A stretch of DNA of 64,000 nt from Stegostoma tigrinum. Lineage: Eukaryota. The stretch lies in the NCBI RefSeq assembly GCF_030684315.1, contig NC_081367.1:44241853-44305852 (forward strand), given 5' to 3'. The notes under the pieces were generated by a model that was given only the letters and a program-made list of their open reading frames with translations, was not told where the DNA came from and made no database searches. This document shows positions 6,609 to 64,000 of the stretch, one piece after another (position 1 is the first letter of the stretch; the number at the start of each line of letters is the position of its first letter). Both the position numbers and the translations under genes were made by a program.

Positions 6609-6801
6609 TAATGGGAACTGCAGATGCTGGAGAATCCAAGATAATAGAATGTTAGGCTGGATGAACACAGCAGGCCCAGCAGCATCTCAGGAGCACAAAA
6701 GCTGACGTTTGAAGGACCTAGGCCCAAAACGTCAGCTTTTGTGCTCCTGAGATGCTGCTGGGCCTGCTGTGTTCATCCAGCCTCACATTTTATTATCTTG
6801 G
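6609..6801 (-). mobile_element. Two-armed inverted PLE family-1 mini-insertion, tail on the left
   Basis: Arms are reverse complements; 14-bp TSD atgtcccccagtgc at 6595-6608 and 6802-6815. Confidence 0.9.
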
Positions 6802-11182: not shown

Positions 11183-11357
11183 ACAAAGTGTGGAGCTGGA
11201 TGAACACAGCAGGCCAAGCAGCATCTCGGGAGCACAAAAGCTGATGTTTCGGGCCTAGACCCTTCATCAGAGAGGCTGATGCTGCTTGGCCTGCTGTGTT
11301 CATCCAGCTACACACTTTGTTATCTTGGATTCTCCAGCATCTGCAGTTCCCATTGTC
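11183..11357 (+). mobile_element. Two-armed inverted PLE family-1 mini-insertion, tail on the right
   Basis: 13-bp TSD tttgtttcaatta at 11170-11182 and 11358-11370; arms join at tcatcagagagg|ctgatgctgc. Confidence 0.9.
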
Positions 11358-12460: not shown

Positions 12461-12968
12461 TAAACAAAAATCGATAGAACTGCGGATGCTGTAAATTAGG
12501 AACGAAAATAGAAGTTGCTGGAAAAGCACAGCAGGTCTGGCAGTATCTATGAAGAAGAAAATCAGAGTTAATATTTTGGGTTAAAACTGACTCAGAGATA
12601 GTAGGAGCTGCTGATGCTGGAGAATCTGAGATAGCAAGGTGTAGAGCTGGAGGAACACGGCAGGCCAAGCAGCATCAGAGGAGCAGGAAAGCTGACATTT
12701 TGAGTTAGATCCTTCATCAGAAAATCAGCTTGACTGAAAATACTTATTGGACAGCAATAATTAGCATAAAATGATGAGCCATTTTGACTCATTTTCTGAA
12801 GAGTCCAGACCTGAAACATCAGCTTTCCTGCTCCTCTGATGCTGCTTGGCCTGCTGCGTTCATCCAGCTCTACACCTTGTTATCGCTTAACATTTTGGGT
12901 CCAGTGTTCTGAAGAAGGGTCACTGAACCCGAAATGTTAACTGATTTTTTTTTCTTCATGGATATTGT
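12461..12968 (-). mobile_element. Two-armed family-2 PLE mini-element interrupted by a family-1 insertion
   Basis: Left arm 12461-12581 resumes at 12887-12905; right arm from ~12906 reads gttctgaagaagggtcactgaacccgaaatgttaac. Confidence 0.75.
12582..12886 (-). mobile_element. Two-armed family-1 PLE mini-insertion with a captured 64-bp centre
   Basis: 14-bp TSD ttaatattttgggt/ttaacattttgggt at 12568-12581 and 12887-12900; arms at ~12592-12725 and 12794-12884. Confidence 0.85.
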
Positions 12969-18879: not shown

Positions 18880-19675
18880 ACATTAAGAACTGTGGATGCT
18901 GGAAATCTGAAACAAAAGTGGAGAATGCTGAAGAAATTCAGCAGGTCTGGCAACATCTTTTGAAAAAAGCAGTTAACATTTGGAGTTAAGTGACCCTTCA
19001 CCAGAACTGAAGATGGCTGGAAAAGGCTGGTATTTACGCAAATGAAAAGTGGTGGAAGGTGTGCAGTGGATGAATGGAGTGCATGGGAACAGGGCCCAGA
19101 CAGGGGTGGGTGATGGTGGTGGAGACAACAAAAAGACAGAATAAAGGAATAGGCAAAAAAAGTAACAACTGATGATGAGCTGACAGTGCAATAAATGTTG
19201 GATCGGGTGCTAACAAAATGTTGTGAATAGTTTAAAATGGGTTGGCTCAGCAGGGAGCACTGATACACCAATGGACTTAGGGCTGTGGAGGGAGGGTCAC
19301 CAGCACAGAGGAGGGTGGTTATATTCTGCAAATGTTAACCTCAATATTGAGTCTGAAGGCTGTAGTGTACCTAGGCAGAAGATGAGGTGGTGTTCCTCTA
19401 ACTCACAGTGAACTTTGTTGAAACACTGCAGCAAGCCTGAGACAGAAATGTTGGCATTGAAATGCTGTGGTGTGTTGAAGTGGCAGGCAACTGGAAGTTC
19501 AAGGTCATTTTTACAGACTGAGCATCGTCATTCAGCAAAGCAGTCACACAGTCTGCATTTTGTCTCCCCAAGTTACAGGAATCCATGTCGTGAAAGTGAA
19601 TGCAGTAAACTAGATTGGGTGAACTGCAGGTAAATTATTGCTTCACCTGGAAGGTCTGTCTATTGGCCTTGGGTT
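18880..19675 (-). mobile_element. Old family-2-like PLE with a GIY-YIG remnant
   Basis: Tail plus module plus decayed hammerhead (gacccttcaccagaact); then reverse-strand remnants of YxGETKxRL and EEHHLIFCLGTLQP. Confidence 0.75.
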
Positions 19676-24557: not shown

Positions 24558-24709
24558 TCTAAATAAAAACCAAAAGAACTGTGAATGCTGTAAAGATCAG
24601 AAACGAAAATAGTAGTTGCTGGAAAACTTAGCAGTTCTGACAGCATCTGTCCCTTCACAGATGCTGCTAGACCTGCTGAGTTTTCTTGGCAACTTCTGTT
24701 TTTGTTTCT
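24558..24709 (-). mobile_element. Two-armed inverted family-2 PLE mini-insertion, ~40-nt tail on the left
   Basis: cagaaacgaaaatagtagttgctggaaaacttagcag...cagcatctgt is mirrored by acagatgctg...ctgtttttgtttctg; 12-bp TSD gtagttttaatc/gtatttttaatc at 24546-24557 and 24710-24721. Confidence 0.8.
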
Positions 24710-24711
24710 GT

Positions 24712-25869: not shown

Positions 25870-26285
25870 ACTGACCTCTCCCACCACTAAGAGACACAGA
25901 GACACTCTCTCTAGACTGAGCCCTCCCTAGACTGCACCCCACCTTCCTTGCCCTAATTGGACCCCCTCCCACCCTGCCTCCAGAAGCTGAAGACGCCTTC
26001 CTCTCTTCCCAAGACCTGACACCTCCCCACTCTCCCACTGCAGGATACAATTTCTCCTGCTGCTAGACCGGGTGAACCCCACCTAAAATCTGAAGCATCT
26101 TGTTGCAACATCCCTTCGCAGCCTCCTGACACCCCCCCAACTGGATCTGCTACCTCCCAGGACTGAAGAAGGGTAATATCAGAAACATTGACTGCTGCCT
26201 TCCTCCAGATGCCTGGTCTGCTGTGCTCTTCCAGCCTCCTGTTTGTCCACCTGGATTTCAGCATCTGCAGTTTTTTTGTCTCTAA
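25870..26285 (+). mobile_element. 3' fragment of a third PLE-like family
   Basis: C-rich tract, decayed hammerhead ctgaagaagggtaatatcagaaacatt, module cagatgc...gctgtgctcttccagc and tail gatttcagcatctgcagttt. Confidence 0.6.
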
Positions 26286-32205: not shown

Positions 32206-33670
32206 GGTAATAAAGTGTGAGGCTGGATGAACACAGAAGGCCAAGCAGCATCTCAGGAGCACAAAAGCTGACGTTTTGGGCCTAGACCCTTCATCAGAGA
32301 GGGGGATGGGGTGAGGGTTCTGGAATAAATAGGGAGAGAGGGGGAGGCAGACCGAAGATGGAGAGAAAAGAAGATAGGTGAAGAGGAGAGTATAGGTGAG
32401 GAGGTAGGGAGGGGATAGGTCAGTCCAGGGAAGACGGACAGGTCAAGGAGGTGGGATGAGGTTAGTAGGTTGGAAATGGAGGTGCGGCTTGGGGTGGGAG
32501 GAAGGGATGGGTGAGACGAAGAACAGGTTAGGGAGGCAGAGACAGTCTGGGCTGGTTGTGTGGTGCAGTGGGGGGAGGGGGCGAACTGGGCTGGTTTTGG
32601 GATGCGGTGGGGGAAGGGGAGATTTTGAAGCTGGTGAAGTCCACATTGATACCATTGAGCTGCAGGGTTCCCAAGTGGAATATGAGTTGCTGTTCCTGCA
32701 ACCTTCGGGTGGCATCATTGTGGCACTGCAGGAGGCCCGTGATGGACATGTCATCTAAAGAATGGGTGGGGGAGTTGAAATGGTTCACGACTGGGAGGTG
32801 CAGTTGTTTATTGCGAAACGAGCGGAGGTGTTCTGCAAAGCGGTCCCCAAGCCTCTGCTTGGTTTCCCCAATGTAGAGGAAGCCACATCGGGTACAATGG
32901 ATACAGTATACCACATCGGCAGATGTGCAGGTGAACCTCTGCTTAATATGGAAAGTCATCTTGGGGCCTGGGATAGGGGTGAGGGAGGAGGTGTGGGGGC
33001 AAGTGTAGCACTTCCTGCGGTTGCAGGGGATGGTGCCGGGTGTGGTGGGGTTGGAGGGCAGTGTGGAGCGAACAAGGGAGTCACGGAGAGAGTGGTCTCT
33101 CGGGAAAGCAGACAAGGGTGGGGGATGGAAAAATGTCTTGGGTGGTGGGGTCGGACCAATGGTATCAATGTGGACTTCACCAGCTTCAAAATCTACCCTT
33201 TCACCCACCGCATCCCAAAACCAGCCCAGTTCGTCCCCTCCCTCCACTGCACCACACAACCAGCCCAGCTCTTCCCCTCCACCCACTGCATCCCAAAACC
33301 AGTCCAACCAGTCTCCGCCTCCCTAACCTGTTCTTCCTCTCACCCATCCCTTCCTCCCACCCCAAGCCGCACCCCCATCTACCTACTAACCTCATCCCAC
33401 CTCCTTGACCTGTCCGTCTTCCCTGGACTGACCTATCCCCTCCCCACCTATACTCTCTCCACCTATCTTCTTTTCTCTCCATCTTCGGTCCGCCTCCCCC
33501 TCTCTCCCTATTTATTCCAGAACCCTCACCCCATCCCCCTCTCTGATGAAGGGTCTAGGCCCGAAACGTCAGCTTGTGTGCTCCTGAGATGCTGCTTGGC
33601 CTGCTGTGTTCATCCAGCCTCACATTTTGTTGTCTTGGATTCTCCAGCATCTGCAGTTCCCATTATCTTT
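32206..33670 (+). mobile_element. Large two-armed inverted PLE (Neptune-like): left arm 32206-33155 (-, tail-less, with GIY-YIG), right arm 33156-33670 (+, tailed)
   Basis: Left arm encodes CNRRKCYTCP...VVYCIHCTRCGFLYIGETKQRLGDRFAEHL; junction gtcgga|ccaatggtatc; no TSD visible. Confidence 0.9.
33541..33572 (+). ncRNA. Minimal hammerhead ribozyme motif in the PLE 3' repeat
   Basis: CU-CUGAUGA-A-GGGU(CUAG)GCCC-GAAA-CG-UC^AG; the same motif occurs at 37498, 41788 and 52518. Confidence 0.7.
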
Positions 33671-35823: not shown

Positions 35824-37607
35824 GATAATAAAATGTGAGGCTGGATGAACACAGCAGGCCCAGCAGCATCTCAGGAGCACAAAAGCTGACATTTCGGGCC
35901 TAGACCCTTCATCAGAGATGGGGATGGGCTAAGGGTTCTGGAATAAATAGGGAGAGAGGGGGAGGCGGACTGAAGATGGAGAGAAAAGAAGATAGGTGAA
36001 GAGGAGAGTATAGGTGGGGAGGTAGGGAGGGGATAGGTCAGTCCAGGGAAGACAGACAGGTCAAGGAGGTGGGATGAGGTTAGTAGATAGGAAATTGAGG
36101 TGCGGCTTGGGGTGGGAGAAAGGGATGGGTGAGAGGAAGAACAGGTTAGGGAAGCAGAGACAGGTTGGACTGGTTTTGGGATGCAGTGGGTGGAGGGGAA
36201 GAGCTGGGCTGGTTGTGTGGTGCAGTGGGGGGAGGGGACGAACTGGGCTGGTTGTGGGATGCGATAGGGAAGGGTAGATTTTGAAGCTGGTGAATTCCAC
36301 ATTGATACCATTGGGCTGCAGGGTTCCCAAGCAAAATATGAGTTGCTGTTCCTGCAACCTTCGCGTGGCATCATTGTGGCACTGCAGGAGGCCCATGATG
36401 GACATGTCATCTGAAGAATGGGTGGGGGAGTTAAAATGGTTTGCAACTGGGAGGTGCAGTTGTTTATTGCGAACCGAGCGGAGGTGTTCCGCAAAGCGGT
36501 CCCCAAGCCTTTGCTTGGTTTCCCCAATGTAGAGGAAGCCACACTGGGTACAGTGGATGCAGTATACCACATTGGCAGATGTGCAGGTGAACCTCTGCTT
36601 AATATGGAAAGTCATCTTGGGGCCTGGGATAGGCGTGAGGGAGGATGCCCTTGTCTGCTTTCCGGAGAGACCACTGTCTCCGTGACTCCCTTGTTCGCTC
36701 CACGCTGCCCTCCAACCCCACCACACCTGGCACCTTCCCCTGCAACCGCAGGAAATGCTACACCTGCCCCCACACCTCCTTCCTCACCCCTATCCCAGGC
36801 CCCAAGATGACTTTCCATATTAAGCAGAGGTTCACCTGCACATCTGCCAATGTGGTATACTGTATCCACTGTACCCGGTGTGGCTTCCTCTACATTGGGG
36901 AAACCAAGCGGAAGCTTGGGGACCGCTTTGCAGAACACCTCCGCTCGTTTCGCAACAAACAACTGCAGCTCCCAGTCGCAAACCATTTCCACTCCCCCTC
37001 CCATTCTCTAGATGACATGTCCATCATGGGCCTCCTACAGTGCCACAATGATGCCACCCGAAGGTTGCAGGAACAGCAACTCATATTCCGCTTGGGAACC
37101 CTGCAGCCCAATGGTATCAATGTGAACTTCACCAGCTTCAAAATCTCCCCTTTCCCCCACCGCATCCCACAACCAGCCCAGTTCGTCCCCTTCCCCCACT
37201 GCACCACACAACCAGCCCAGCTCTTCCCCACCACCCACTGCATCCCAAAACCAGTCCAACCTGTCTCTGCCTCCCTAACCGGTTCTTCCTCTCACCCATC
37301 CCTTCCTCCCACCCCAAGCCGCACCTCCATCTCCTACTACTAACCTCATCCCACCTCCTTGACCTGTCCGTCTTCCCTGGACTGACCTATATTCTCCCCA
37401 CCTATACTCTCCTTTCCACCTATCTTCTTTTCTCTCCATCTTCAGTTTGCGTCCCCCTCTCTCCGTATTTATTCCAGAACCCTCACCCCATCCCCATCTC
37501 TGATGAAGGGTCTAGGCCCGAAACGTCAGCTTTTGTGCTCCTGAGATGCTGCTGGGCCTGCTGTGTTCATCCAGCCTCACATTTTATTACCTCAGATTCT
37601 CCAGCAT
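35824..37607 (+). mobile_element. Large two-armed inverted PLE inside CR1: left arm 35824-36645 (-, tail-less), right arm ~36647-37607 (+, tail runs into the gap)
   Basis: Both arms encode the GIY-YIG domain (ORFs 36061-36726 - and 36645-37343 +). Confidence 0.9.
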
Positions 37608-40190: not shown

Positions 40191-41701
40191 CCCTACCATT
40201 ACTGCATCCAATTCAGTTTTTATTTAAATGTTTCTAGGGTTGTCTTGCAATTCCCTGCAATCCATTTGAAGTGTTGATCACTTATGGACCCAGAATCTGA
40301 TGAAAAATAACTGTACACTCATTATCACTGTACAAATAATAACCATGTAAATCACATACCTCATTACTGTACAAACCTCACAGATTTCTGTAGAAATCAG
40401 ATATTACTGTACAAATAATGACTAAGGTTTACACTGATCACAATTAATGAGACTTATTGCATTTTGTGCTGTTAATTAGACTTGCTCATGTATGCTTATG
40501 TTTGAAATATTGTACAAACAGTCCTGTATGAAGTATGAACTGTTAATGACACCGTGAGGGAGACACTATAACTGGAGTCTAGGTGGATAACCACCCTGCG
40601 TGATCGTCACATATCTAAACTGCAACTACATTTTGAAAAATGAACTCAAATCTAGATTATTCTAAGTCTGCTTTCTGTGTTGTCTTCTGTGAAGTCAGAC
40701 AGACACAAATACTAATGTTCAAACTCTCTGCTATCTCCGAGCTTCTCACTATCAAATTCCCCAGTCTTGTCCCCAAAGGGGCCAATGCTAACTTTAGTTG
40801 CTCTCAAAAGTGAACTATTTGGAGTGCAATTTATATTTCTGCATGTATTGAATTCTTGGTGATACCAATTTTTAAAAGAATATGTTTGCTTTTTTTCCTC
40901 TCTCTAAATTCAATATTATCTCCCCCTTTCTGTTTTATCTTTCTGTATCTGATTTGACTCTGAATTATCCATTTTAATTCCCACCCCTTTCTTTGCCATT
41001 CCTACCTATTTTTTTGTCATCTACTGATCATTGATTCAAAAGCAATGCACTGATAGTGTTGTCGTCCACCGAGACTCTGGATGTAGTGATGCCATTAACA
41101 GTTTGGCAGCTAACCGATTGGCAATGTGACAAAAAACAGATGATGCAATGTTTGTAGACTAGCAAGACCACCTTGGTACAGTCCCTGGGAACACTATGCA
41201 AGGAGAACTGTAACTAGAGAAGTAAGGATGGAAATAATTTTGAGAAGAAAAGAGCACCCGGGGTTTACAGCAAGAGAATGGTCTCCAGAAATGCCTGGGA
41301 TATAGATAATTGATCTTTCAGCTGTGGTTTGAAGTACCTTTTACATCATGGACTGATTCTGAGAGTATAATACAGTAATCTAAACTAAATATGAAGTGGA
41401 AAATTCAGGGAGAAAAATTGAATTATGAGCCAAAGGAAGGATATTCTTTTGATAACAAACAAGACATTCAGTGATTAATGCATTACTGGATGAATCTGCC
41501 AACATGCAGTGTTAGACAATGGACGCATGTTTAGCGTGTATGGAACAGACTGGCGAAAATGCTGTCTAGACTGAGTAATAAAACAAAGTTAAGGAATTTG
41601 AAAATTCCACCAGTTTGAGATTTTGTGATGACTATACATTAAGACATTGTAAAATACTGTCATGACTTGAAAATTGGTCTGAATCAATCACTTTGAGTAT
41701 G

Positions 41702-41923
41702 GATAATAAAATGTGAGGCTGGATGAACACAGCAGGCCAAGCAGCATCTCAGGAGCACAAAAGCTGACGTTTCGGGCCTAGACCCCTCTCTGATGAAGGG
41801 TCTAGGCCCGAAACGTCAGCTTTTGTGCTCCTGAGATGCTGCTTGGCCTGCTGTGTTCATCCAGCCTCACATTTTATTATCTTGGAATCTCCAGCATCTG
41901 CAGTTCCCATTATCTCTGATACT
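41702..41923 (+). mobile_element. Young two-armed inverted family-1 mini-insertion with an intact hammerhead core
   Basis: ~84-bp perfect inverted arms; 15-bp TSD actttgagtatggat at 41690-41704 and 41924-41938 (gat shared with the element). Confidence 0.95.
41788..41819 (+). ncRNA. Minimal hammerhead ribozyme motif
   Basis: ctctgatgaagggtctaggcccgaaacgtcag. Confidence 0.7.
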
Positions 41924-43309
41924 ACTTTGAGTATGGATGTAGTTTACTGTGAAACGTCGCTGTTATGAAATAGGTCGTAAATGAAGGAAGCATAGATAAT
42001 ATTGGCCAGAGCAAATTAGAAAGTTACTGTTTTTGGACAATGCATGAATTTTTAATTTACACAATCAGAACAATATTTTATTCCTTTAATGGAATATGCC
42101 CTCTGAGCTAAAGAAATGGAAAAAAAAGTGTTATAGACATCAGCGAGCAAATATTTAGAAGATGAAGCAAGTCAGCTGTGTTTAAACTGCATTTGTGAGA
42201 TTTGTAAGAAATGCCAAAACGTACCATCATAGCCTATAATAAGTATTTTTGTAGCAAATGATTTCAGTGAGGTAATGCAATGAATTTAAAGGTTTGCGAT
42301 AAAGAAAAGCATGAGATTTTTCCAGTCAACAATAATAAATAGTTAAGACGAGAAAATAATTATGGGTAATGCAATGGAAATGTGGATGGGGACTGGACGT
42401 GGATCACCAACAAAATTTCTACTGATAAATTGGGGGTGGGGGAGATACAGAATGGGTGAAATTTGCTAAGAATGAATTTAGAGATGTGTGCACAAATATG
42501 AACCAAATAATTATGAATACAACAGCAGAAAACCTTTTTAGCAGTGGGCTGTGTGAAAGAAATCACATAGTAATAGATAAATGGTTCATAAAATTTTGGC
42601 AGATCAGACAAAATGTACATTATCATCTGCACTAGTATGGATTGTCCATGCAAAAAAACTCATTGCAGATGGTCATTGGATACAGTCTGAATCAATTAGT
42701 TTTTATCAGAAATCATAGGGATTTCAATTAGCTGTACTTTATCAGAGCTTTTGAATGCAATGCATATAAGTAGAAAGGCTTTAATGAAAGCTTAAATCTC
42801 AGGAAGAATTCAGGTGAGCCTTGAGAAACTTGGGTAAAGCCATTCAAAACTGTTTTGAATCAGGGAGGCATGGCTCATTGTGTGTGAGAGAGAGGACAGT
42901 TGAAAGAGAGGAGAGGCTCAGCAAAGGTAATTGGTAAAGACTGAAAGATAATAATTGTACAGCTTAGGAATCAAATTGATTGGGTATATCCTCGATATGG
43001 ATTACAAATTTACAGATTGCAAAGGAGTTTCAAAAAGTAGTGAGGAGCCAGGTACCCCTCAGCCACAGCTAGCACAGTGATGAGGCTCAGACTGTCCCAG
43101 TCACCAGTTTGTCTGTGATGGACAGATCAGTTCTGATGATCAAAATGAAGCCATTGGTACCAAAGGTCAATTACCAAAAGTGGATAATAAAGTCCATTCT
43201 TTTGCTGGATGGGGCTAATCAATGGAGAAATATGACTTTAACAAGTTGAGCAGGGAAAGCCACTATACAATGTAAAAGCCAGATGAATGCATAGGACCAG
43301 GCCATAGCC

Positions 43310-51550: not shown

Positions 51551-52645
51551 CACACACCACCCTACCAACCTCCGGATACAACGCATTATCCTCCAACACT
51601 TCCGCCATTTACAATCCGACCCCACCACCCAAGACATTTTTCCATCCCCTCCCCTGTCAGCTTTCCGGAGAGACCACTCTCTCCGTGACTCCCTTGTTCC
51701 CTTGTTCGCTCCACACTGCTCTCCAACCCCACCACACCCGGCACCTTCCCCTGCAACCGCAGGAAATGCTACACTTGTCCCCACACCTCCTCCCTCACCT
51801 CCATCCCAGGCCCCAAGATGACATTCCACATTAAGCAGAGGTTCACCTGCACATCTGCCAATGTGGTATACTGCATCCACTGTACCCGGTGCGGCTCCCT
51901 CTACATTGGGGAAACCAAGCGGAGGCTTGGGGACCGCTTTGCAGAACACCTCTGCTCAGTCCGCAACAAACAACTGCACCTCCCAGTCGCAAACCATTTC
52001 CACTCCCCCTCCCATTCTCTAGATGACATGTCCATCATGGGCCTCCTGCAGTGCCACAATGATGCCACCCGAAGGTTGCAGGAACAGCAACTCATATTCC
52101 GCCTGGGAACCCTGCAGCCATATGGTATCAATGTGGACTTCACCAGTTTCAAAATCTCCCCTTCCCCTACTGCATCCCTAAACCAGCCCAGTTCGTCCCC
52201 TCCCTCCACTGCACCACACAACCAGCCCAGCTCTTCCCCCCCCCCCCCCACCCACTGCATCCCAAAACCAGTCCAACCTGTCTCTGCCTCCCTAACCGGT
52301 TCTTCCTCTCACCCATCCCTTCCTCCCACCCCAAGCCGCACCCCCAGCTACCTACTAACCTCATCCCACCTCCTTGACCTGTCCGTCTTCCCTGGACTGA
52401 CCTATCCCCTCCCTACCTCCCCACCTACACTCTCTCCACCTATCTTCTTTACTCTCCATCTTCGGTCCGCCTCCCCCTCTCTCCCTATTTATTCCAGTTC
52501 CCTCTCCCCATCCCCCTCTCTGATGAAGGGTCTAGGCCCGAAACGTCAGCTTTTGTGCTCCTGAGATGCTGCTTGGCCTGCTGTGTTCATCCAGCCTCAC
52601 ATTTTGTTATCCTGGAATTCTCCAGCATCTGCAGTTCCCATTATC
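51551..52645 (+). mobile_element. Single-arm tailed 5'-truncated PLE with GIY-YIG
   Basis: ORF 51818-52564 contains VVYCIHCTRCGSLYIGETKRRLGDRFAEH; perfect 15-bp TSD tctgacaatggttta at 51536-51550 and 52646-52660. Confidence 0.93.
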
Positions 52646-60882: not shown

Positions 60883-62760
60883 CCCTAAGCCCGTGACACC
60901 ACCCACGCCCTCCACCTCCTCCAGGACTTCCAATTCCCTGGCCCCCAACACCTCATTTTCACCATGGGCGCCCAGTCCCTATACACCTGTATTCCTCATG
61001 CAGATGGCCTCAAGGCCCTCCGCTTCTTCCTGTTTCGCAGGCCCGACCAATCCCCTCCACCGACACCCTCATCCGCCTCGCTGAACTTGTCCTCACCCTC
61101 AACAACTTCTCTTTCGATTCCTCCCACTTCCTACAGACAAAGGGGGCGGCCATGGGTACCCGCATGGGCCCAAGTTATGCCTGCCTCTTTGTAGGTTACG
61201 TGGAACAGTCCCTCTTCCGCACCTATACAGGCCCCAAACCCCACCTCTTCCTCCGTTACATTGATTACTTTATCGGCACTGCCTCTTGCTCCCCAGAGGA
61301 GCTCGAACAGTTCATCCACTTCACCAACACCTTCCACCCCAACCTCAAGTTCACCTGGGCCATCTCCAACACATCCCTCACCTTCCTGGACCTCCCAGTC
61401 TCCATCTCCGGTAACCAGCTAGAAACTGATGTCCATTTCAAGCCCACTGACTCTCACAGCTACCTAGAATATACCTCCTCCCACCCACCCTCCTGTAAAA
61501 ATTCCATCCCCTATTCCCAATTCCTCCTCTTCCGCCGCATCTGCTCCCAGGATGAGGTATTCCACTCCCGCACATCCCAGATTGTCCACATTCTTCAAGG
61601 ACCGCAACTTTCGCCCCGCAGTGGTCGAGAACGCCCTCGACCACATCTCCCGCATTTCCCGCAACACATCCCTCACACCCCGCCCCCGCCACAACCGCCC
61701 CCAGAGGATCACCCTCGTTCTCACATACTGCCCCACCAACCTCCGGATACAATGCATCATCCTCCGACACTTGTGCCATCTACAATCCGACCCCACCACC
61801 CAAGCTATTTTTCCATCCCTACCCTTGTCTGCCTTCTGGAGAGACCACTCTTTCTGCGACTCCCTTATCCGCTCCACACTCCCCTCCAACCTCACCACAT
61901 CCGGCACCTTCCCCTGCAACCGCAGGAAGTGCTACACTTGCCCCGACATCACCTCCCTCGCCCCTATTCCAGGCCCCAAGATGACCTTCCATATCAGGCA
62001 GATGTTCACCTGCACATCTGCCAATGTGGTATATTGTATCCATTGTACTCGGTGTGGCTTCCTCTACATTGGGGAAACCAAGCGGAGGCTTGGTGACCGC
62101 TTTGCGGAACACCTCCGCTCGGTTCGCAATAAACAATTGCACCTCCCAGTCGCCAACCATTTCAACTCCCCCTCCCATTCCTCAGATGACATGTCCATCA
62201 TGGGCTTCCTGCAGTGCCACAATGATGCCACCCAAAGGTTGCAGGAACAGCAACTCATATTCCGCTTGGGAACCCTGCAGCCCAATGGTATCAATGTGGA
62301 CTTCACAAGCTTAAAAACCTCCCCTTCCCCCACTGCATCCCAAAACCAGCCCAGTTCTTCCCCTCCCCCCACTGCATCACAAAACCAGCCCAGCTCGTCC
62401 CCTCCCCCAATTGCATCCCAAAACCAGCCCAGCCTGTCCCCACTTTCCTAACCTGTTCTTCCTCTCACCCATCCCTTCCTCCCACCTCAAGCCACACCTC
62501 CGTTCCTTACCTACCACCTCATCCCGCCTCCTTGACCTGTCTGTCTTCCCTGGACTGACCTATCCCCTCCCTACCTCCTCACCCATACTCTCCTCTCTAC
62601 CTATCTTCTTCTCTCCATTTTCGGTCAGCCTCGCCTTCTCTCCCTATTTATTTCAGAACCCTCTCCCCATCCCCCTTTTCTGATGAAGGGTCTAGACCCG
62701 AAACGTCAGCTTTTGTGCTCCTGAGATGCTGCTTGGCCTGCCGTGTTCATCTTGTTATCT
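60883..62760 (+). mobile_element. Longest PLE copy: 5'-truncated, frameshifted RT plus Cys-rich linker plus GIY-YIG, tail-less 3' end (Neptune-like)
   Basis: SLYTCIP, AMGTRMGPSYACLF, LRYIDY (catalytic DD mutated), LTFLDL, FKPTDSHSYL, IPYSQFL; frameshift near 61580; CNRRKCYTCP and VYCIHCTRCGFLYIGET. Confidence 0.93.
62678..62709 (+). ncRNA. Minimal hammerhead motif (stem II variant with U-A in place of U-G)
   Basis: ttctgatgaagggtctagacccgaaacgtcag. Confidence 0.7.
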
Positions 62761-64000
62761 TGGACAAAAGGGTCTGTTTCTGTTTTGTATGACTCTATGG
62801 CTCTATTTCAGGTATACACGTTATTATTTGGTAGTTCAGGACTTGCTGAAAAAAGACACATTTTGTTGAATGTTTTCGCCTTACACTCATTAGACGGTGT
62901 TTAATATTAGTTGTGACTCCAGCAATTGAATAATGTTTCTTACATAATCCTGAAGGTGCAAGGAATTACTCTGACAACCCATTTAAGATTATCAGTTTGT
63001 CTCATAAAGAGGTACAGTTGCATGTGCTGATTGTATACATTAACATGTAACAACGCATGTCAATACACTGGGTTCAACTTGGCAGTCAGAGAATTTTTCA
63101 CACAGGTCACCTGTTCAACTCAACAAATAGTTCATTTGATGTTTCATTTCTCAGGGCAGTGCCCTAACTAATCACAGTCAACTTGTCTGATTTAAAATTT
63201 CACAAATCCTAGCTTTTAACCTGTCAATTAGCACTGATGGGTGTATTCTTCATGGAAATTTTTCTGATAATTATATAAGATAGCCACAGCCCACTTGCCA
63301 ACCAATCTGCATTCTCCACCATGCAGTATAAATATTGGTTTTGTCCTTGAGTTTGTATTCTTGCAAATAGTCCTGATACGTATAAGGTGTAAAGCTTCAA
63401 CAAACATCTTTGTCAATTTTTTTCGAACAGCACTCAAGTTAGAGACTGCCCTTCTACCGTTTGCTGTAAATTATTAGCATGGACAGCTGTTGCGAATACA
63501 GCCAATAATTTTTCAGTTTGTCTGTCCTACTTCCTGCATCCTTTACGAACATTTTTCACCTTTTGAATGATGAATGGGTAAATTGCCTATGTAGTTTTAA
63601 CACAATTGACCTTTTGTCTTCTAAACTGCTGCCTCCTCATGTCAATAACACTTCTTTAATTATTATTAGCTTATGGAGCTTATCTTCCATTAAAGCACCC
63701 CAATTGCATAAATTAATTTCACAGACTTTTCCAATACAGAACTTTGTCATTTTCCATATCCAGCTTTTTCTGTTCACTTCATGAATTACTTATTTAATAG
63801 CAGTAATAGTTCTCTGGATACTATATCAGTACAAATCAAATGATTGTTTCCAGCTATTTTGTAACAAATGACAGTTTTTCTTAAAAAGATTTTAGTGTGT
63901 TTTCATTCCATATTCCGAAACTGGATGGAAATCTCAAATTCCTTAACTTTATTCCAATCCTTATTTCTCACTTCAGGCAGCATTTGCCAATGTGTTCCAC

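Follow-up and report, generated by a model that had tools for sequence, protein, structure and literature searches.

The window analysed here, 64,000 nucleotides of Stegostoma tigrinum DNA (NC_081367.1, forward-strand positions 44,241,853 to 44,305,852) out of a 3.2-Gb genome, is rich in pLTR copies of one young family. At 41702-41923, a direct tailed pLTR (41783-41923, + strand) stands beside its partner, an inverted, tail-less and 5'-truncated pLTR (41788-41702, – strand; blastn 98.9% to 41795-41881), and both are flanked by the copies of a 15-bp target-site duplication, identical 15-mers at 41690-41704 and 41924-41938 (both +). The direct copy holds a minimal type I hammerhead core (41790-41817, +: CUGAUGA, helix II, GAAAC-GUC; predicted cut after 41817), which has no Rfam match and, by sequence comparison, fits the min-HHR description in the available part of PMC4209133. 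Downstream of it lies a family 1 module (41828-41920) that an earlier note had described as a conserved stem-loop; its site is the pLTR/5'UTR of Neptune-type Penelope-like elements (PLEs), 16-22 nt past the hammerhead cut site. As that note claimed, the blocks from 41834 onward run arm, inner hairpin, U-rich linker, arm, GCAGTTC. The 5' arm of the outer helix (AGATGCTG, 41834-41841, +; core GATGCTG invariant in the Neptune-type or N families) is followed by a 4-bp inner hairpin (41850-41865, +; GCTG at 41850-41853, an 8-nt loop, CAGC at 41862-41865) seen in Neptune-type families only, a variable U-rich linker (41866-41891, +), the 3' arm (CAGCATCT, 41892-41899, +) and, directly 3' of this arm, a conserved GCAGTT block (41900-41905, +), which is predicted to pair with a downstream ACTGC in read-through RNA or, in a competing register, with the 5' arm. 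End mapping puts the tail-less end, site 1, in the linker at about 41881-41883, and the segment between site 1 and site 2 (41882-41923, +), which encloses the 3' arm, is a PLE 'tail' of the 30-40 nt class, as the term is defined in the accessible text of PMC8557442 and PMC11167929. Because the ORF starts ~30 nt past the tail end in read-through copies, the family 1 module is noncoding 5'UTR.

Judged by its sequence features, the host of the module is a Neptune-type PLE; as in PLEs, there is a pLTR with a minimal hammerhead, inverted copies and an optional tail. A broken family 1 element (60897-62810, +) ties the module to a protein, with a putative RT region, a CX3CxxC linker and a GIY-YIG nuclease ahead of a pLTR. 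The RT-like stretch (60897-62096) is recognised by eye in this broken copy, which has no Pfam RT match, and the C-terminal GIY-YIG (61468-62448) scores 23.0 bits for PF01541 against a cut-off of 22.6; a second region (51689-52561) scores 20.5 bits, below the cut-off. The PCNRRKCYTC of family 1 translations is a CX2-5CxxC linker ahead of the endonuclease, the criterion that, with GIY-YIG, is given for Neptune/Nematis-type PLEs in the part of PMC8557442 available; being common to Neptune, Nematis and Naiad, this linker is not diagnostic of Neptune alone.

Our sample comprised 126 arbitrarily placed 10-kb stretches (1,323,668 bases with the window), and further loci came from genome searches with queries that end before the tail. 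Hammerhead-anchored clustering of 199 matches yielded 135 N, 44 P, 4 Q, 4 in a fourth cluster and 12 singles. A genome search with the P1 module, in which very common words are skipped, gave no match, and P1 therefore consists of 22 sampled copies. The fourth cluster was rejected as a chance motif without PLE features, and N, P and Q are all three hammerhead-bearing PLE clusters in the sampled DNA. Past the hammerhead they are unrelated to one another (cross-type p 0.08-0.99). P loci encode an endonuclease without the cysteine linker, which suggests a Poseidon-like type, and Q lies ~600 nt downstream of a third, linker-bearing endonuclease at L268, the one locus that ties it to a PLE protein.

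Within the N type, the earlier note had found the module in three families that it called divergent. They are in fact detectably homologous, with local alignments scoring above all 200 shuffles and lineage majorities 55-64% identical to each other, and families 1-3 are therefore not independent witnesses. The block order of family 1 recurs in the family 2 and 3 majorities, though two of the copies cited for it depart from it. Family 2 has a tailed module at 12478-12548 (–) and a family 2-like one at 18887-18958 (–), both identified from sequence and blastn, and a head-to-head pair at 24560-24710, made of a tailed copy (24648-24560, –) and a tail-less copy (24659-24710, +). The latter, which the earlier note had cited for the full block order, lacks the tail and with it the outer 3' arm, and has TGGCA as its inner 3' block. 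Family 3 has the order intact in its majority, but the cited tailed copy (26208-26275, +) is missing 3 nt from its 5' arm. The outer stem, put at ~7-8 bp, keeps seven pairs (GATGCTG/CAGCATC) in all N families but not the eighth: this is an A-C mismatch in 30 of 49 tailed N2 copies, and N1c does not retain it. It had also been claimed that the pairing blocks persist while the rest varies: arms and inner stems are invariant in 22/22 columns of the three N lineages against 29/82 elsewhere, a count that is partly circular since stems were picked because they are conserved, and the linker does vary (5/26 columns invariant), but the flanking unpaired bases are invariant as well. The stems are indeed conserved without covariation, the 7-bp core being invariant with no compensatory change, and families 1-3 by themselves do not prove an RNA structure. 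At least two more old Neptune-type families with few copies have the same module (L070, L132, L133, L160; L048, L129); in one of them the inner loop is 7 nt long and an edge pair is G-U.

We mapped copy ends by finding copies through their upstream part only and aligning them to a tailed reference. For N and P, 491 matches gave 487 with enough flank and 479 after duplicate removal, in seven subfamilies; 245 end before the 3' arm, 12 between (1-14 nt past the arm start) and 222 later. Median upstream ends, counted from where the 3' arm starts, are -10 (N1a), -9 (N1b), -5 (N1c), -9 (N2), -9 (N3), -8.5 (P1) and -9 (P2), and downstream medians range from +25 to +30, in several families limited by the length of the reference. 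The claim that the tail-less break falls in the linker thus stands for the upstream end class of the 479 copies (medians -5 to -10) and for the window itself, where the inverted partner stops at ~41881; start site 1 is read off the 3' end of this partner, at about -10 relative to the 3' arm. Q behaves alike, with 13 upstream, 1 between and 14 tailed among 28 copies (medians -10 and +23) and 22/0/16 among 38 newly sampled ones (medians -9 and +23). Ends are therefore bimodal in all three types, at about -9 and at +23 to +30 nt from the 3'-arm start, with 13/545 between, and their distance from the 3' arm is fixed whatever the length (28-50 nt) or sequence of the loop. Anywhere from 85 to 106 nt lie between hammerhead and arm, and it is thus the 3' arm, not the ribozyme, to which the ends are tied. 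Contigs from two public sequencing runs have loose ends and opposite-strand joints at the two sites of family 1, but one run may be source data and the joints are therefore not independent support. In many contigs, site 1 of one copy is connected, tail to tail, with the opposite-strand site 2 of another (L057:7055-7107; L032), which suggests insertion beside or into existing ends.

Each insertion uses both end classes, one apiece, in a near-strict manner. We counted 187 head-to-head pairs within 1.5 kb (one locus, L104/L214, entered twice), 21 of them with an unclassified end; among the 166 classifiable pairs, 155 combine a tailed with a tail-less copy, 6 are both tail-less and 5 both tailed, and 109 of the 111 pairs with a flanking duplication of at least 7 nt are mixed. 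Independent site use would be expected to give about half mixed. That the tail often occurs at one end only is stated qualitatively in the part of PMC8557442 available.

The outer helix recurs at the same place in all three types. Taking median ends as tail boundaries and leaving out N1c (n=6 tailed), we looked for the longest Watson-Crick helix that could join the post-hammerhead region to the tail. In 7/7 family majorities it has 7-9 bp, starts 9-10 nt into the tail and lies 16-22 nt past the cut site, with loops of 28 nt in P, 39 nt in Q and 48-50 nt in N. Shuffle p values are 0.003-0.041 for helix length and 0.0003-0.014 when the offset is included. Helices of at least 7 bp occur in 8-13% of random genome stretches (4000 trials per geometry), in 2-3% at the tail offset and in 0.6-0.7% at both offsets. 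Because the offset window was set after seeing N, only P and Q count as tests, and their joint chance on the tail offset alone is about 6e-4. The helix sequence is wholly replaced between N, P and Q, and the inner hairpin is seen only in Neptune-type families. P1 has A-U and P2 G-C at one helix pair, which is weak evidence of compensation because both changes are CpG transitions. All core pairs being Watson-Crick, neither the strand nor the choice between RNA and DNA can be read from the sequence.

Thermodynamic prediction gives a mixed picture. Alone, 41828-41920 is no more stable than its shuffles (z -0.14; 83/200 shuffles as good) and its minimum-energy fold takes another register than the one proposed; with the natural downstream UTR, the proposed fold is the minimum-energy fold, with an additional GCAGU/ACUGC stem (z +0.56). 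Across copies, single-sequence z scores run from -3.6 to +0.6, and we rejected single-copy folding as proof of structure because this range is not decisive. The proposed register has pair probabilities of 0.00, 0.01, 0.99, 0.99, 0.73 and 0.21 in six N majorities, 0.01 being that of the main N2 majority. The competing register, here register B, pairs the inner block with the 3' arm and the 5' arm with GCAGU; it is favoured in 2/6 N majorities (P(B) 0.96 and 0.54), and one Q copy favours another register. In the P type, the outer helix has a pair probability of 0.94-0.99. A window-wide Rfam scan gave no match to 41828-41920 at the gathering score and five sub-threshold matches to miRNA models elsewhere.

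One PLE has been reconstituted in vitro. Purified PAc (Poseidon_Ac of Anolis carolinensis) cuts and extends both target strands; its reverse transcription has two internal RNA starts that bound the tail and match genomic ends, it needs RNA from about +20 to +172, hammerhead cleavage is dispensable, and a dimer is predicted (PMC11167929, from the portion available). By our manual count on the RNA given in that portion, CAUGGCC at +50 to +56 complements GGCCAUG at +94 to +100 over 7 bp, the 5' arm lies 20 nt past the cut triplet, and the downstream start (+111 to +118) is 18-25 nt from the 3'-arm start; the upstream start is placed shortly before the arm by the 30-40 nt tail length, not by a published coordinate. 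The PAc helix thus appears to sit in the same register as the N/P/Q helix. Family 1 resembles PAc in having two starts (putative in family 1) downstream of the pLTR hammerhead, a 30-40 nt tail, genomic ends to match and, by our count in PAc, a 7-bp helix whose 3' strand lies in the tail, but the PAc region is AC-rich, unrelated in sequence and inside the ORF, whereas that of family 1 is U/C-rich and in the 5'UTR. Likewise, PAc has an AC-rich stem-loop at its downstream start (+111-118) that family 1 lacks; in family 1, a predicted 5-bp stem closes the 30-nt, U/C-rich loop that contains the downstream site, and only P is AC-rich among N, P and Q. The main text of PMC11167929, in the part available, names only the AC-rich stem-loop and holds no cross-family comparison or helix test; its Fig. 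S1 gives letters from about +30 to +124, apparently as a fold, and the helix may be drawn there.

What is observed is the position of an inverted repeat, two end classes, a fixed distance to the arm and one end of each class per insertion. We think it probable, though well short of assured, that the outer inverted repeat is an RNA helix that docks the PLE RT-endonuclease and positions both reverse-transcription starts. A transcript reading through the pLTR into the 5'UTR and ORF would form the 7-9 bp helix, which would dock the protein so that copying starts ~9 nt before and ~23-30 nt after the start of the 3' strand. The protein would nick both target strands ~7-16 nt apart; extension of one nick would begin at site 2 and take in the tail, that of the other would begin at site 1 and leave it out, and head-to-head joining of the two cDNAs would yield a tailed direct and a tail-less inverted pLTR with target duplications on either side. 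Neptune-specific contacts may come from the inner hairpin and the invariant bases that flank it. Tail-less copies, which have no 3' arm, end at a fixed distance all the same, so the end cue would have to be read from the template or donor and not from the product. The earlier note had proposed a structured RT-recognition or priming element. Its first half, taken as a role in positioning the RT, finds real support for the outer helix, which occupies the same place relative to both end classes in unrelated types, but the inner hairpin was seen in Neptune-type families only; priming is unlikely because PAc, in the assay described in the accessible text of PMC11167929, extends nicked target DNA strands. 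Against the helix stand the absence of covariation in the N core, the invariant unpaired neighbours (as in a sequence motif), the competing registers and the requirement of PAc for RNA up to +172, past the helix (PMC11167929, available portion).

Some of these points would suit a protein that reads single-stranded motifs or register B, the outer complementarity being secondary or one state of a switch. Invariance without covariation does reach unpaired bases, register B is within 0.4 kcal/mol of the proposed register in family 1 RNA and is better in 3/6 majorities by constrained energy, and the A-C mismatch of N2 sits where register B leaves a base unpaired. However, three unrelated sequences converge on one helix position, the invariant GAU/AUC pairs are left unexplained by register B, and P folds to the outer helix with a pair probability of 0.94-0.99; we regard this alternative as unlikely. 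A similarly unlikely reading, which we would put no lower, is that the arms act at the DNA level, where a protein dimer or the endonuclease would recognise them in donor dsDNA or as a single-stranded cDNA hairpin, the ends being points of DNA cutting or joining. Strand symmetry of the core pairs fits this reading, earlier work cited in PMC11167929 had the endonuclease recognise plasmid DNA only with the D. virilis tail, and antisense templates and self-priming are raised in PMC3846280 (both in the parts available), but arms 28-50 nt apart would sit poorly with a rigid DNA site, tail-less products cannot form a cDNA hairpin, and naked RNA is template enough for PAc to start at these places in vitro (PMC11167929, same portion).

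We give little credence to the proposal that the helix controls the hammerhead, translation or splicing, with ends nearby because it blocks or exposes those stretches. The 5' arm does lie 16-22 nt past the cut site in all families, PAc hammerhead cleavage requires protein (accessible text of PMC11167929), the ATG of the 5' arm shares the reading frame of the family 1 ORF, and an acceptor-like CAG precedes the 5' arm in N2 and N3. Yet the ends track the 3' arm and not the hammerhead, that ATG is cut off from the ORF by a TGA and families do not share one frame, AG is missing in N1c and the site is GAG in 79/84 N1a copies, and no splice-like joint occurs among the contig joints listed, a weak point since their RNA status is guessed. 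Common descent plus chance, which would make the blocks functionless ancestral leftovers, strikes us as very improbable: the N families are homologous, helices of at least 7 bp occur in 8-13% of random stretches of this size and arm decay in old genomic copies proceeds at the neutral rate, but P and Q fit the position independently (about 0.02 x 0.03 on the tail offset alone), the arms stay fixed between lineages while the linker turns over, and a signal that only active masters use is expected to decay neutrally once inserted. The decay figures for arms and surroundings are 0.062 and 0.064 in N2, 0.049 and 0.050 in N3, and 0.066 and 0.052 in P2, and we rejected host exaptation because arms decay like their surroundings in these copies. 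N1a arms are cleaner (0.004 vs 0.031), a difference that may come from a mixture of subfamilies in the linker.

PLEs, pLTR hammerheads, tails and dual starts are already known. The PLE tail has been described as a 34-37 bp repeat of D. virilis Penelope and as an optional 30-40 bp extension (PMC2377424, PMC3846280, PMC8557442, each from the part available); it resembles ours in length, position and occurrence at one end only but is treated there as a feature of the DNA, perhaps an ancestral promoter or an endonuclease site, and the accessible text mentions no pairing with upstream sequence. The minimal hammerheads of PLE pLTRs and the non-LTR retrozymes share this terminal region, and the present genome likewise has tandem non-autonomous units; the available parts of PMC4209133 and 10.64898/2026.07.22.740005 deal with the ribozyme and not with copy ends or the helix downstream. 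In the literature searched, with subscription papers mostly outside it, we found neither a position-conserved, sequence-divergent PLE helix across families nor the rule of one end of each class as a count.

The helix reading offers a concrete rule for three unrelated types, made of a helix position, offsets of -9 and +23 to +30 and one site per end, and it appears to fit PAc, the only PLE reconstituted in vitro; it bears on how PLEs choose start sites and on why the tail is at one end only. Stringent LINEs and the R2 3'UTR have a 3' stem-loop near the start of copying that is bound by their own RT. Those signals set one start at the RNA 3' end, whereas the PLE helix would be internal, between two starts per insertion. 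In LINE-1 twin priming, both target strands prime and an inversion results inside one target duplication, but L1 inversions have variable internal sites and non-overlapping segments, whereas in PLEs both sites are fixed and the arms copy overlapping sequence. If true, the helix reading would define the smallest cis signal by which RNA is loaded on a PLE protein, make PLE ends and tails callable from sequence alone and be relevant to how templates are positioned in telomerase's sister group. We raise more tentatively, and with more doubt than belief, the generalisation that all tail-bearing PLEs share a sequence-free RNA ruler, in which a tail-strand helix would seat an RT dimer so that the two starts, each serving one nicked strand, lie ~35 nt from each other with overlapping template; insertions would then be built inward from two 3' ends by obligatory fixed-site double priming, unlike LINE target-primed reverse transcription and possibly akin to telomerase template-boundary helices.

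Several minor observations accompany these data. The ATG within the 5' arm (41836) is in frame with the family 1 ORF with a single TGA, at the tail end, between them (41836-41919; L028), and an upstream ORF or read-through is possible there; a coding role of the module was rejected given the stop before the ORF and the differing frames among families. A branch-point-like YTRAC, a pyrimidine run and CAG abut the 5'-arm ATG in 87/116 N2 and 22/27 N3 copies, not in N1 (in the window, acceptor-like stretches at 12548-12580, –, and 26188-26210), and an intron ending at this CAG would remove the hammerhead; a conserved splice acceptor was rejected as a general explanation on the N1a and N1c counts given above. 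Two P-like copies (L172:4687-4850; L179, –) stop at the tail-less site and run into identical other sequence with no 3' arm, and are probably a tail-less copy carried within another repeat. At the family 1 ORF end and pLTR start, 39-bp tandem units vary in copy number (33196-33323, 37148-37275, 62282-62448). Tandem arrays of internally deleted family 1 units keep the hammerhead, module and ORF start, with nine hammerheads at 654-nt spacing in one of them (L048:6263-10000 and L049:1-1500; G000 C4, about 126.926-126.932 Mb), others at L075:7451-8340 and L050:7353-8230, and further spacings of about 440, 344 and 187 nt; these units resemble the non-LTR retrozymes in the available part of bioRxiv 10.64898/2026.07.22.740005. 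Finally, head-to-head pLTR pairs (6675-6762, 11189-11314) form long perfect hairpins with weak scores against miRNA models; the mir-2131-like Rfam matches at 6675-6762 were rejected as miRNA, being an inverted pLTR pair, and such pairs are a potential source of double-stranded RNA if transcribed.
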